This document shows positions 2,529 to 8,348 of a DNA stretch of 64,000 bases, piece after piece. A program made the translations under genes and the position numbers. The notes under the pieces were generated by a model. The model was not told the DNA's origin, ran no database searches, and saw only the letters and a list, made by a program, of their open reading frames with translations. The number at the start of each line of letters is the position of its first letter. The stretch's first letter is position 1. Source of the DNA: an archaeon (GTDB taxonomy: Archaea > Nanobdellota > Nanobdellia > Pacearchaeales > GW2011-AR1); contig DAOVXQ010000001.1 in assembly GCA_030636025.1 (NCBI GenBank), forward strand, positions 96,809-160,808. The letters are read 5' to 3'.

Positions 2529-2918
2529 TTACAATTTCTTTTTAATTATTTTAGTTCCCTCAATATCCCAATATTCAACTTGGTCCTCTTCTTTAATTTG
2601 CCCTCTTAATTCTTCACTAATTAGAACATCAATTGTTTCAAAATTTTCTAAATCCATAATATTTGCATTATCTTCAGAAACCGACAAAACTTGTGCTTTT
2701 CTTTTATTAATCATAGGACATTCAAGTTTATCATGCCCTCCAATAACAAAAACTTTCTTTTTTCCGTCGATAAGATTAACTGCCTCAATTCTGCATTTTG
2801 AATGCCCGTGCCTTCCAGTTTTACTAATGTCATTAGATTTGATAATGCACGCAACACCCTCAACCAAGATAGTTGTTCCAGATTTCCCCTGAGTAGCATG
2901 AATTAATTTAAAAGCCAT
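2529..2918 (-). CDS. eif5a: Translation initiation factor 5A (aIF5A)
   Basis: Hypusine-loop motif SKTGRHGHSKCRI. I chose the internal Met (MAFKLIHATQGK) as the start, because the longer ORF-track version would run through the divergent FKBP promoter. Confidence 0.85.
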   Translation of the reverse strand: MAFKLIHATQGKSGTTILVEGVACIIKSNDISKTGRHGHSKCRIEAVNLIDGKKKVFVIGGHDKLECPMINKRKAQVLSVSEDNANIMDLENFETIDVLISEELRGQIKEEDQVEYWDIEGTKIIKKKL

Positions 2919-2967
2919 ACTGGAAAGAAAAAAAATACATTTATAAATGCTTCTAACAAAAACAATT

Positions 2968-3639
2968 ATGGAAATCACAAAGAAAAAGGATTTCATTGAA
3001 ATAGAATTCACAGGAAAGTCAAATTCACAAATATTTGATACAACCAGCAAGGAAGAAGCAAAATCAATCGGGTTACAGGCCGATGTTAAACCAATAATCG
3101 TCTCTGTCGGAAATGAAATGGTTTTAAAAGGTTTTGACAAATCTCTTGAAGGAAAAGAATTAAACAAAAAATATTCTGTTCATTTAAAACCTGAAGAGGC
3201 ATTTGGTCCAAGAAACCCGCAGTTAATTAAAACACTTCCAATAAAAGTTTTCAAGGAAAAAAACATCCAGCCAATGCCAGGCATGACATTTAATATGGAC
3301 AATCATATAGCAAAAATTCTTTCAGTTTCAGGAGGCAGAATTATTACGGATTTCAACAACCCCTTGGCAGGAAAAGAAATAGAGTATGATTTTATCATAA
3401 AAAGAAAAATAACCGATGACAAAGAAAAAATAAACGCACTTCAGGATTTTTTCTTTAAACAAAAATTTGAATTTGAAATCAAAGGCAAAAAAGTTATTTT
3501 CAAAAAACAAGAAATTAAACCACTTATAGAAATGATGAAGCAAAAATTCAAAGATATGACTGGATTTGAGTTTGAAGTTGAGGAAAAGAAAGAAGAAAAA
3601 TCAGAAAAAAAGAAAGAAAAAGTTGAAGAAAAAAAATAA
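2968..3639 (+). CDS. FKBP-type peptidyl-prolyl isomerase (SlyD-like) with K/E-rich tail
   Basis: FKBP/IF-domain layout: VLKGFDKSLEGKE..., then GGRIITDFNNPLAGKEIEYDFII. 'ttataaat' at 2941-2948 looks like a TATA box, so the ATG at 2968 is preferred over 2947. Confidence 0.75.
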   Translation: MEITKKKDFIEIEFTGKSNSQIFDTTSKEEAKSIGLQADVKPIIVSVGNEMVLKGFDKSLEGKELNKKYSVHLKPEEAFGPRNPQLIKTLPIKVFKEKNIQPMPGMTFNMDNHIAKILSVSGGRIITDFNNPLAGKEIEYDFIIKRKITDDKEKINALQDFFFKQKFEFEIKGKKVIFKKQEIKPLIEMMKQKFKDMTGFEFEVEEKKEEKSEKKKEKVEEKK

Positions 3640-6064: not shown

Positions 6065-6098
6065 TAAAATTTATAAAGGGTTAACTTTAATAATTATA

Positions 6099-6497
6099 AT
6101 GAAAAACTTCACTCAAGATTCACTGGAAAAACTTAAAAAACTAGAACTTAGATTAGGGGATTTTGGAACTATAATTTCGTGTTCTGATTTAAATTATCCT
6201 GTTGGCGTAGCAGAAATTACAGTGACCCCCACAGCATTTAGACGTGAATATAATCTTTTTGACAAAGGATTTGTCAATACAAGAACTCAAAGAGTTTCTA
6301 AAGAAGAATATGAGAACTCAACATTTATTGCTTATATTTTTGGAACTACCAATAGTCTTAAAACTTGTAAGGACTCAGATTTAGTGCCAGATTTAGTTTA
6401 TGCACCTTCTAAAGAAGGAGAAGCATTCCCAATGATATATTTTATATCAACACAAGATATTGTGGACTATAAAACTAGAAACAGTATGCCCATTTAA
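6099..6497 (+). CDS. Hypothetical protein inserted between secE and spt5
   Basis: 132-aa ORF with 'tttataaa' about 25 nt upstream. No motif recognised. Confidence 0.4.
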   Translation: MKNFTQDSLEKLKKLELRLGDFGTIISCSDLNYPVGVAEITVTPTAFRREYNLFDKGFVNTRTQRVSKEEYENSTFIAYIFGTTNSLKTCKDSDLVPDLVYAPSKEGEAFPMIYFISTQDIVDYKTRNSMPI

Positions 6498-6680
6498 GGT
6501 TAATTTAATAATAAAAAATAAATAATAAAATTAACAACAAAATTTATAAACCCTAAATTTCAACTAATATTATCTAATTCTTAAGATGTTAAGAGTTAGT
6601 GGGCACACAATAAATTAAAAACACCTTTCAATGGCAAACAAAGTTACTCATAATAAATTAAATAAATGCAATAATTCAAA

Positions 6681-6794
6681 CCGAGTCTTAACTCAACATC
6701 CTGAAAATTCAAAAGAATTTTCAGTTAGCAATCGAAGATTGCACACTCAGGAAGATGACTTGTTAAGAAACCTGGGTTTCTTACGATTGTGAAA
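6681..6794 (+). promoter_or_regulatory. Structured leader element, copy 1 (upstream of spt5); lies inside short ORF 6631-6792
   Basis: Homologous to 7374-7481. Contains hairpins ctgaaaatt/aattttcag, gcaatc-gaa-gattgc and gaaacc-tg-ggtttc. The short ORF's stop codon (6790-6792) lies 2 nt before the spt5 ATG. Confidence 0.55.
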
Positions 6795-7364
6795 ATGATA
6801 TTCATAATAAAAGTAACAACAAATAAAGAAGACAAAGCAATGGAGCTAATCTCAGATAAAATCCGTAAAAAAGACCTGAGAGTTTACTCTCTCGCAAGAC
6901 CCCACGGACTTCGGGGATATATTTTCTTAGAATCCGAAGACAGAGAATCTGCAGAAGAAGCAGCATACAATTTGCCATATGTAAAAGGAATCATCGGGAA
7001 AACAGTTACATACGAGGAAATAAAAAACATGATTGAGCCAGTCTTAGAAGAAATCAACATAGAAAAAGGAGACATTGTTGAAATAATCGGAGAGCCCTTC
7101 AAAAAAGAAAAAGCAAAAGTAGTAAGAATAGACAAAACAAAAGGAGAAGTAGTTGTATCTTTATTAGCCGCAGTTGTCCCAATTCCAGTAACAGTAAAAC
7201 TAGATAATATAAAAGTTATCAGAAGAGAAAAAGAAGGAGAAGAAGAAACAGAAGAAAAATCAGAAACAATAAATAAACCTTCATCACAATCAGATGTTAG
7301 CCAACTAGAAATTAAACAAGACTATGAAGAACCAACAGGAGGATTAATCCCAGATGATTATTAA
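6795..7364 (+). CDS. spt5: Transcription elongation factor Spt5 (archaeal NusG)
   Basis: NGN-type N-terminus MIFIIKVTTNKEDKA and KOW motif GDIVEIIGEPFKKEKAKVVRID. The C-terminus is acidic. The ATG at 6795 is preferred over the GTG at 6789. Confidence 0.85.
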   Translation: MIFIIKVTTNKEDKAMELISDKIRKKDLRVYSLARPHGLRGYIFLESEDRESAEEAAYNLPYVKGIIGKTVTYEEIKNMIEPVLEEINIEKGDIVEIIGEPFKKEKAKVVRIDKTKGEVVVSLLAAVVPIPVTVKLDNIKVIRREKEGEEETEEKSETINKPSSQSDVSQLEIKQDYEEPTGGLIPDDY

Positions 7365-7373
7365 ATTAAACAA

Positions 7374-7481
7374 CCGAGCTTTAGCTACTTGGCATCCTGA
7401 AATACAAAGTATTTCAGTTAGCAATCGAAGATTGCACACTGAGGAAGGTTGCTTGGAGGAAACCTTAGGTTTCCTGTGATT
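7374..7481 (+). promoter_or_regulatory. Structured leader element, copy 2 (upstream of rpl11); lies inside short ORF 7354-7479
   Basis: Shares the invariant core 'tttcagttagcaatcgaagattgcacact' with copy 1, and its stem changes are compensated (ctgaaatac/gtatttcag). The short ORF's stop codon (7477-7479) lies 2 nt before the rpl11 ATG. Confidence 0.55.
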
Positions 7482-8153
7482 ATGATTATCAAATTACTTA
7501 TCGATGGCGGAGACATGAAACCAGGTCCAGCAATAGCTCAGCAATTAGGTCCAATGGGAATAAATATGGGCAAAGTAATCTCAGAGGTCAATGAAGCAAC
7601 AAAAAAATTCAAGGGAATGAAAGTCCCAGCAGAATTAAATATCGACGAAAAAACAAAAGAATTCACAATCAAAGCATTATCGCCCCCAACTTCAGAATTA
7701 CTAAAAAAAGAATTCAACTTAGAAAAAGGTTCTGCAGACCAGAAAGTAAGATTAGTAAATGCATCTATTGAAGACATTATTAAAATAACAAAAATAAAAC
7801 ATTCCAGTATGCTTGAAAAAGAATTCAAATCAGCAGTCAAATCAATTTTAGGAACTTGCGCAGCAATGGGAATAATGGTTGAAAACCGAGGAGCAAATGA
7901 ACTTGTTAAAGATATAGAAGAACATAATAAATTTCATAATGAAATTGAAGAACAATCAACAGAAACAAGCCCTGAAAAAAGGGAAAAACTAAAACAGTTT
8001 TTTGATAAAGTTAAGGCTGCTCAGGATGCTAAGGCAGAACAAGCAAAGAAAGAAGCAGAGGAAGCAGAAACAGCAAAAACAGAAGAAACAGCTAAACAAG
8101 AAGAAACGAAAGAAACCACAGAATCTGAAAAGAAAACAGAAGAAAAGAAATAA
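7482..8153 (+). CDS. rpl11: Ribosomal protein uL11 with about 70-aa E/K/A/T-rich C-terminal extension
   Basis: MIIKLLIDGGDMKPGPAIAQQLGPMGINMGKVISEVNEAT is a typical uL11 N-domain. The ATG at 7482 was chosen over the TTG at 7449. Confidence 0.9.
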   Translation: MIIKLLIDGGDMKPGPAIAQQLGPMGINMGKVISEVNEATKKFKGMKVPAELNIDEKTKEFTIKALSPPTSELLKKEFNLEKGSADQKVRLVNASIEDIIKITKIKHSSMLEKEFKSAVKSILGTCAAMGIMVENRGANELVKDIEEHNKFHNEIEEQSTETSPEKREKLKQFFDKVKAAQDAKAEQAKKEAEEAETAKTEETAKQEETKETTESEKKTEEKK

Positions 8154-8274: not shown

Positions 8275-8348
8275 GGGGATGTAGTCCAGCCTGGCTAAGA
8301 CTCGAGCTTTGGGAGTTCGCAACCCCAGTTCAAATCTGGGCATCCCCA
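8275..8348 (+). tRNA. tRNA-Pro (anticodon UGG)
   Basis: A manual cloverleaf fits. The acceptor stem is GGGGATG/CATCCCC. The anticodon stem is CGAGC/GTTCG with loop TTTGGGA. The T arm is CCCAG-TTCAAAT-CTGGG. G is at position 37, and no CCA is encoded. Confidence 0.85.

Follow-up and report, generated by a model that had tools for sequence, protein, structure and literature searches.

Which element precedes the genes spt5 and rpl11 in the genome of a DPANN archaeon, and what could it do for them? The question arises from an AT-rich stretch of 64,000 nucleotides (nt) of contig DAOVXQ010000001.1, referred to here as the window, in which both genes are preceded by a copy of the same element, about 115 nt long, that ends 2 nt before the start codon. 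A first-pass annotation of the window, made from the letters alone, had proposed a cis-regulatory RNA, a translationally coupled leader peptide, or both. The present analysis suggests that the element is a portable, structured and translated relay leader, which would hand ribosomes to the downstream gene by termination-reinitiation. This reading is held tentatively, at a little short of an even chance.

Two copies of one element in the window

The two homologous segments described in the first-pass annotation were recovered by pairwise alignment (about 6674-6794 and about 7366-7481, both on the plus strand). They share the 29-mer TTTCAGTTAGCAATCGAAGATTGCACACT, which occurs exactly twice in the 64-kb window (6719-6747 and 7412-7440, both plus) and found no match in 100 dinucleotide shuffles, even with three mismatches allowed. 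The other features seen at first reading were present as well: TGTGA and, after two further nucleotides, ATG in both copies; short open reading frames (ORFs) of 53 and 41 amino acids; the hairpin GCAATC-GAA-GATTGC (P4); a start-proximal hairpin (P5); and indels of 3, 3, and 6 nt in a MAFFT alignment. Coordinates are collected in Table 1. Folding z-scores against shuffles are -3.5 and -3.7 for the two copies. The sequence of copy 2 is identical in an independent assembly (L051), and its orthologues in L024, L025, and L030 carry compensatory changes.

Some of the earlier structural claims stand only in part. The 9-base-pair (bp) hairpin (P3), said to differ at three compensated pairs, is present as CTGAAAATT/AATTTTCAG and CTGAAATAC/GTATTTCAG, but the differences are those between two exchangeable P3 alleles. 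A covarying outer helix (P1; CGAGT/ACTTG versus CGAGC/GCTTG) is also present, but it competes with an equally supported pairing, CCGAG/CTTGG, at 7374-7378/7388-7392. Finally, the 29 nt called an invariant core are identical in the window copies, but they are a recent gene-conversion tract and not a sign of deep conservation, as the L030 alleles differ.

Distribution among relatives and host genes

The loci of relatives (L numbers) were gathered by uL11 similarity. Further copies were sought by searching 5.8 billion proteins with a profile built from the peptides of the short ORFs, and by one degenerate DNA-pattern scan of metagenome contigs together with a covariance model (R1). Twelve distinct copies emerged, spread over six gene contexts; each lies on the sense strand and ends at the start codon of the host gene. 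The host is rpl11 in the window, L024, L025, and L030, and spt5 in the window and L030. The other hosts are pheT, which encodes the beta subunit of phenylalanyl-tRNA synthetase (PheRS-beta; L029, L037, and L043); rpl44e, which encodes eL42 and whose identity was confirmed (L034, L035, and L036); a gene for a Rad50/SMC-like ATPase (AAA_23; L044 and L045); and a gene for a 189-amino-acid membrane protein of unassigned function (L039-L042). Homologous elements in relatives, proposed earlier as a check, were thus found, and the notion of a leader specific to spt5 and rpl11 falls, because the family stands directly 5' of these other genes too.

The element shows presence/absence polymorphism among close relatives. 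It is absent 5' of rpl11 in L001, L003, and L026, and 5' of spt5 in L024. A truncated element lies 5' of rpl11 in L005, and a diverged 3' half lies 5' of spt5 in L003. A covariance-model scan of the 64-kb window and a few kb added at its ends found no copies beyond the two. The S19e, L31e, L37ae, CysRS, and AspRS genes of the same genome lack the element; pheT and rpl44e were not located within the window. A scan of viral contigs gave no match. The family is read as lineage-specific and was found in a subgroup of Pacearchaeota-like DPANN archaea.

Contigs L051 and L003 begin at or inside the element (position 1 each), as assemblies do at repeats, which hints at further copies in these genomes. 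Several weaker matches were discarded as chance: L013 1720-1828 and L018 1774-1881 (minus; TCCTGAAtt...TTTTCAGTTAG) lie inside the rpl3 coding sequence, the pattern matches in L032 and L038 fall within long ORFs that belong to unrelated organisms, and a TTTCCTGTGAAT string (minus, about 3007-3018) is antisense within the FKBP gene.

RNA structure and selection

Across the family, the module is 115-180 nt long. It begins with an AT-rich start region (..AAAUUAAAU..), followed by a 5' helix that is either a proximal hairpin, CCGAG/CUUGG, or CCGAG paired with a distal GCUUGG. The middle part consists of the hairpins P3 and P4, which are free in sequence and length and are set in conserved linkers (AUC-P3-UUA-P4-ACUNAGRAAR-GRU). 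The 3' end is formed by P5 (GAAACC/GGUUUC) and YGUGA, with the host AUG 2 nt on.

In the alignments, 91-92% of the pair cells are paired, compared with 82-85% in shuffles, none of 500 attaining the observed value, and 28-56% with slid partners, and both sides have changed at 10 pairs; these counts were made on alignments fitted to the model and are biased toward its structure, and the apparent covariation is inflated because there are only 12 distinct sequences, from few lineages and recombining. P3 is paired in 100% of cells, although its loop is variable (CAAAAG, AAA, CUUUAG, AAG, CUU, UUA, and others). P4 is paired in 86% of cells, five of its six pairs covary, and its stem occurs as five unrelated sequences (GCAAUC, AGAUUUUC, GGAGUUUUC, CAAUUC, and UAAUUCU) that form a hairpin every time. 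P5 is paired in 91% of cells. The two alternatives of the outer helix are mutually exclusive, and both are kept in all types (proximal CUUGG in 90% of cells, distal GCUUGG in 86%). A 3-bp AUC/GRU helix (P2'), with which a three-way junction would be closed, fits 97% of cells and shows no double covariation. Since the counts lean toward the model and the sequences are few and related, only P3, P4, and P5 are treated as established, and the other helices as candidates. The G.U pairs place the structure on the transcribed (sense) strand. The excess of paired cells over shuffled and slid controls, with the doubly changed pairs, upholds the earlier claim of a conserved, structured RNA on that strand.

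The rpl11-type element diverges by 8.6% (L024) and 11% (L025), compared with 31% and 45% at the 4-fold sites of the adjacent rpl11, and it therefore evolves 3-4 times more slowly. Because this divergence is so far below that at the 4-fold sites, the element is judged to be under purifying selection, at the RNA level for the hairpins and linkers.

The copy associated with the Rad50-like gene (L044 155-215; also L045) is longer by 54 nt, inserted between the outer helix and P5. In L044 this insertion contains a perfect 13-bp hairpin, CATTTGCATTTGA/TCAAATGCAAATG, and the upstream ORF remains open through it.

The Rfam search proposed at first reading returned nothing on the element, at gathering thresholds or at permissive E-values. 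With 4227 models, including large-subunit (LSU) rRNA and ribosomal leaders, cmscan gave no match to the element at E<=10 (6400-7700) or at E<=1 (seven loci). Among the papers that could be searched, none was found to describe such an element. Other candidate readings were rejected. A UCCU/AGGA helix shares nucleotides with the base of P3 and is disrupted in three types. The candidate boxes for box C/D, H/ACA, K-turn, and hammerhead readings (GAUGA, CUGA, and ACA), examined by eye, are not conserved among copies. An intron of the bulge-helix-bulge type, also assessed by eye, is contradicted by host N-termini that are intact without splicing. As for likeness to tRNA or tmRNA, ARAGORN reports only the tRNA-Pro of Table 1.

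The upstream open reading frame

Each copy in the window is crossed by one of the short ORFs. The frame of the 53-codon ORF contains no stops, while the other two frames contain two and three. The ATG of the 41-codon ORF overlaps the spt5 stop (ATGATTATTAA), and the same ATG is the rpl11 start in L001 and L003, where spt5 and rpl11 overlap as ccagATGATTATTAA. The module in the window bridges a 117-nt spacer between spt5 and rpl11, where relatives have the ATGATTATTAA stop/start overlap.

Among the 12 distinct copies, frame 0 is stop-free in nine, and the other frames contain 2-5 stops each. The stop abuts or overlaps the host start, likewise in nine, as UGAnnAUG in most copies and as UGAUG in L041; an upstream ORF whose stop abuts the next start, as first described, is thus the usual state. 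Indels among the intact copies measure 3, 3, 6, 6, and 54 nt. Three copies have lost or shifted the frame. Another mosaic upstream ORF, P0124, lies on a 103-kb contig.

The putative upstream start takes different settings. In front of pheT, it follows the preceding ORF by 1 nt in L029 and overlaps that ORF in L043. In L041 and L044, a TATA-like box precedes it by about 20-30 nt, as read from the sequence. In its position, the module AUG occupies the place of the host gene's own initiation signal.

The first-pass annotation had also proposed a conserved upstream ORF with shared peptide residues, but the peptide is not conserved as a protein. Third codon positions are the least variable, both within the rpl11 type (4/37 variable, versus 8/36 and 10/37 at positions 1 and 2) and across types (12/33, versus 20/33 and 21/34). 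As the third positions vary least, the peptide itself is not under protein-level selection. It also changes wholesale at every change of hairpin allele. On this evidence, the upstream ORF matters as a frame and not as a peptide.

Unrelated short ORFs that contain hairpins (28 and 19 codons) occur between spt5 and rpl11 in L007 (about 2650-2790) and L009 (about 2900-3000). Their stops meet the rpl11 start either in an overlap, TAATG, or 2 nt before it, as TAAtcATG. A short ORF abutting the rpl11 start is, to judge from these loci, a recurrent way of feeding rpl11.

Recombination between copies

The locus L030 comes from a strain nearly identical to that of the window (rpl11 99.9% at the nucleotide level, spt5 99.3%, ftsZ about 95%). 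Its spt5 copy has the short P3 that stands at rpl11 in the window, and its rpl11 copy has the long P3 that stands at spt5 in the window. The P4 of the L030 spt5 copy, AGAUUUUC-AAA-GAAAAUCU, is identical to that of the pheT copy in L043; relative to L030, an rpl11-type P4 has been copied into the spt5 element of the window. The copies therefore exchange hairpin cassettes. On the reading favoured here, copies duplicate and recombine ectopically with one another, which spreads and homogenises the family.

The rpl11 copy stands between direct repeats of 15 nt (ATGATTATTAAATTA at 7354-7368 and ATGATTATCAAATTA at 7482-7496), and an 18-nt repeat of 83% identity flanks the spt5 copy. In the former, the spt5/rpl11 overlap dictates 11 of the 15 nt. 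When cognate flanks were tested against non-cognate flanks, similarity was not above the non-cognate level for spt5, pheT, and eL42 and was significant only at rpl11. No target-site duplication is demonstrable in these data, as the one significant case is that in which the gene overlap forces the duplication. The element has internal hairpins only, without terminal inverted repeats, and the annotated part of the window showed no transposase near it.

A proposed translated relay leader

In most genes of the window, a TATA-like box ends about 25 nt 5' of the ATG and a Shine-Dalgarno sequence is lacking (e.g., starts 6099, 13767, 21052, and 39661), which suggests that the mRNAs are predominantly leaderless. 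Since most genes look leaderless and lack a Shine-Dalgarno sequence, internal or displaced starts would need coupling. Termination-reinitiation operates in archaea and collapses at a stop-start gap of about 20 nt (PMC6728339; PMC10666635).

The proposed relay has four steps. A ribosome would start at the module's own AUG, whose position is read from the sequence and which lies just after a TATA box, abuts or overlaps the upstream gene's stop, or comes after the native spt5 leader. It would then read 40-62 codons through the hairpins, as the open frame and the indels in multiples of three suggest. Termination would follow at the UGA, placed by the sequence 2 nt before the main AUG or overlapping it. 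Finally, by analogy with experiments in Haloferax and E. coli, the ribosome would re-initiate on the main ORF. The hairpins and linkers probably set or regulate ribosome flux, through structural stability or a bound factor, although this is a guess.

Several points weigh against this proposal. Bridging a spacer alone leaves the need for hairpins unexplained. In L025 and L037, the upstream ORF is truncated and frameshifted, respectively, and stops 16 nt before the AUG, in the P5 loop. No upstream ORF crosses the eL42 copies (L034-L036, two of the 12 distinct sequences), which keep the RNA whole, including UGUGA; translation through the element is therefore not obligatory. The GUGA could instead be a weak Shine-Dalgarno sequence, an idea that L041 makes less likely, as the motif there runs straight into the AUG. 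The predicted folds leave the main AUG unsequestered, so that a simple on/off mechanism is not apparent. The outer helix is ambiguous, and the bias of the pair counts and the small, recombining sample, as described above, belong on this side as well.

Alternative explanations

The best surviving alternative, unlikely but deserving real weight, is a selfish or neutral small repeat that inserts at gene starts in the manner of MITEs (miniature transposable elements with inverted repeats), Rickettsia palindromic elements, or Correia, BOX, and ERIC repeats. Its hairpins would serve its own propagation or be relics without regulatory benefit to the host, and copies would survive only where a read-through frame and an abutting stop keep the host gene expressed. 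The patchy occurrence in close relatives (no spt5 copy in L024, no rpl11 copy in L001, L003, and L026, a truncated one in L005), the six unrelated host genes, the mosaic copies with exchanged hairpin cassettes, the direct repeats at the two window copies, and the contigs that break at the element (L051 and L003) all fit this explanation. Against it, there are no terminal inverted repeats and no nearby transposase in the annotated part of the window, the flanking repeats do no better than non-cognate controls except at rpl11, and only two copies occur in about 68 kb. Moreover, orientation and the exact position with respect to the start codon are the same in all copies. Orthologous copies evolve more slowly than 4-fold sites, and their stems are kept by compensatory change after insertion, which implies constraint at the level of the host.

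Relay leader and mobile repeat could also be combined. The element would then be a self-copying relay-leader cassette at the starts of essential genes, which keeps or tunes their expression via its own frame and whose junction may sense a factor or ligand, that is, a mobile translational regulator. Ribosomes would be forced in through that frame and re-initiate at the host AUG. We consider this fuller version, which would make the element a new class of leader in leaderless-translating DPANN archaea, unlikely.

A sensor RNA, either riboswitch-like or the site of a trans-acting protein, is quite improbable. Here, the three-way junction of P2', P3, and P4 would control a small regulon, and the upstream ORF would only deliver ribosomes. 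Conserved linkers around free hairpins are the usual pattern of aptamers, the AUC/GRU helix that would close the junction is compatible with nearly all cells, the two mutually exclusive 5' pairings could act as a switch, and the element is under purifying selection. However, the hosts (Spt5, uL11, PheRS-beta, eL42, the Rad50-like protein, and the membrane protein) share no pathway, and the S19e, L31e, L37ae, CysRS, and AspRS genes of the same genome are without the element. The element is also unrelated to any Rfam family, no expression platform that hides the start codon is predicted, and P2' lacks double covariation.

A functional protein of 40-60 amino acids or a stalling leader peptide (RALATWHP ... 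LGFL), with the hairpins secondary, is very improbable. The frame is open in nine of the 12 copies and kept across the 54-nt insertion, and RALATW(H/Y/D)P is common to four gene contexts. However, the codon-position pattern given above, the absence of synonymous variation in GCT TTA GCT ACT TGG, the complete change of peptide wherever the hairpin allele changes, and the copies that lack, shift, or shorten the ORF (eL42, L037, and L025) all speak against it. The profile search of 5.8 billion proteins returned only these upstream ORFs.

The remaining idea, raised at first reading, is an autoregulatory mimic of 23S rRNA helices H42-H44 (the GTPase-associated centre; H43-H44 at first reading), by which uL11, uL10/P0, or uL1 would repress the spt5-rpl11 operon; in its favour are the place of the element immediately 5' of rpl11 and of the operon's first gene, and two adjacent hairpins with strings loosely like UUAG...GCACACU, and it is now largely refuted and can hardly be correct. 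In the 23S rRNA domain 1051-1108, the loops are the conserved uL11-binding part. In the element, the loops are variable and both they and the P4 sequence are freely replaced, and Infernal finds no match to LSU rRNA or known ribosomal leaders at E<=10; for these reasons the mimic is unsupported. It is further opposed by the copies 5' of pheT, eL42, the rad50-like gene, and the membrane-protein gene, by the absence of the element 5' of rpl11 in most relatives, by the restriction of GCACACU to rpl11-type copies and the converted spt5 copy of the window, and by the position of rpl1, rpl10, and rpl12 outside this operon.

Comparison with known systems

The relay leader resembles termination-reinitiation pairs at abutting stop and start codons, as described in Haloferax volcanii and E. 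coli (PMC6728339; PMC10666635), in that its stop is separated from the downstream AUG by 2 nt or shares 1 nt with it, and the spt5/rpl11 junction in relatives is a classical overlap of the ATGA type. Unlike these pairs, the frame of the element is no gene, is neutral as to peptide, and runs through a multi-hairpin RNA that recurs before unrelated genes.

Autoregulatory leaders of ribosomal-protein genes include the bacterial L10 leader (RF00557), the L1-bound leader of the bacterial L11 operon, and the L1-operon site of Methanococcus. The element is likewise a structured RNA immediately 5' of a ribosomal-protein gene. In contrast to these leaders, it has no sequence or structure match to them, its loops are variable, it also occurs at non-ribosomal genes, and relatives lack it in the same operon.

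Small structured repeats are known as Rickettsia palindromic elements, which are in-frame and translated, Neisseria Correia elements, pneumococcal BOX, enterobacterial ERIC and RU, and prokaryotic MITEs. Like them, the element is about 100-180 nt long, hairpin-rich, modular, patchy among strains, and recombining, and it is presumably co-transcribed with the neighbouring gene and compatible with translation. It differs in having no terminal inverted repeats or demonstrable target duplication, few copies in the sequence available, a strictly sense orientation, a fixed distance to the start codon, and purifying selection at orthologous sites.

Finally, riboswitches and protein-binding aptamers with a three-way junction share with the element the conserved joining nucleotides, variable peripheral hairpins, and alternative 5' pairings. 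The element differs from these in that it has no coherent regulon or predicted start-site sequestration and is probably translated through.

The ingredients of the element (a structured leader, a coupled upstream ORF, and a recombining small repeat) are known; their combination and its occurrence in DPANN archaea are new. DPANN archaea are uncultured and, to our knowledge, almost nothing is known of their translation control; most of their mRNAs look leaderless. A covarying, selected RNA family that separates the initiation signal of core genes (Spt5, uL11, eL42, and PheRS-beta) from their start codon, and is crossed by an ORF kept in frame but neutral as to peptide, offers a testable case of how a gene may be kept translated in these organisms when its start is displaced, and it would illustrate how a structured leader spreads between genes. 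The family could enter Rfam, and its short ORFs could be flagged as non-genes for annotators. A tempting wrong annotation, the L11 autoregulatory rRNA mimic, is removed.

Genomic setting

The closest uL11 proteins carry the labels Candidatus Pacearchaeota or Woesearchaeota. The gene order around the element is aIF5A, FKBP, FtsZ, SecE, a 132-amino-acid ORF, spt5, rpl11, tRNA-Pro, L37ae, RpoP, prefoldin-beta, SepF, and Dph2. No rpl1, rpl10, or rpl12 follows rpl11 in this genome, where tRNA-Pro and L37ae stand instead.

Table 1. Coordinates of the element, its parts, and neighbouring features in the window
Feature	Position	Strand	Basis or remark
Element copy 1 (spt5-type flanks)	6673-6794	+	Covariance-model match, 101.9 bits, E=9e-18
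Copy 1, P1 5' arm CCGAGT	6681-6686		
Copy 1, proximal alternative GAGT/ACTC	6683-6686/6691-6694		
Copy 1, P3 (9-bp hairpin) CTGAAAATT/AATTTTCAG	6701-6709/6716-6724		
Copy 1, P4	6728-6733/6737-6742		
Copy 1, P1 3' arm ACTTG	6758-6762		
Copy 1, P5	6764-6772/6775-6783		
Copy 1, TGTGA	6788-6792		spt5 ATG at 6795
Element copy 2 (rpl11-type)	7366-7481	+	Covariance-model match, 143 bits, E=5e-26
Copy 2, P1 5' arm CCGAGC	7374-7379		
Copy 2, proximal alternative CCGAG/CTTGG	7374-7378/7388-7392		
Copy 2, P3 (9-bp hairpin) CTGAAATAC/GTATTTCAG	7397-7405/7409-7417		
Copy 2, P4	7421-7426/7430-7435		
Copy 2, P1 3' arm GCTTGG	7451-7456		
Copy 2, P5	7457-7465/7467-7475		
Copy 2, TGTGA	7475-7479		rpl11 ATG at 7482
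Upstream ORF 1, 53 codons, through copy 1	6631-6792	+	TGA 6790-6792, 2 nt before spt5 ATG 6795
Upstream ORF 2, 41 codons	7354-7479	+	TGA 7477-7479, 2 nt before rpl11 ATG 7482
TATA-like box tttataaa of the spt5 transcription unit	6543-6550	+	Sequence reading; same box and spacing in L024, L026, and L030
Native spt5 5' untranslated region (UTR) motif: hairpin 6574-6584/6589-6599, then GUUAGUGGGCACAC	6574-6611	+	Inverted repeat
spt5 (NusG-like; Spt5-NGN domain)	6795-7364	+	Pfam PF03439, E=7e-14
rpl11 (uL11), Lys/Glu/Ala-rich C-terminal tail	7482-8153	+	Homologues with PF03946 and PF00298
tRNA-Pro	8275-8348		ARAGORN

The putative spt5 promoter is the TATA-like box of its transcription unit, with the native spt5 leader and element copy 1 both downstream of it. 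The native 5' UTR motif is outside the repeated element and marks the site where the element was added. A hairpin with other stem sequences, followed by UAG(Y)UGGRGC, also stands 5' of spt5 in relatives without the element. The comparison indicates that the ancestral spt5 leader is this hairpin with its UAG(Y)UGGRGC motif, and not the repeated element. The GGAG of the motif may be a Shine-Dalgarno sequence. The motif is spread more widely, in L001, L002, L005, L016, L021, L024, and L026, with a stem that differs by lineage.

The spacer between secE and spt5 varies among strains. In the window (6065-6530), it holds the 132-amino-acid ORF (6099-6497, no Pfam match), and in L030 (1800-2880) it holds an ORF of 254 amino acids; the genes on either side are 95-99.9% identical between the two. 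The uL11 tail comprises about 65 amino acids rich in Lys, Glu, and Ala (window 7950-8150), and the close homologues of uL11 are long as well, at 207-254 amino acids.

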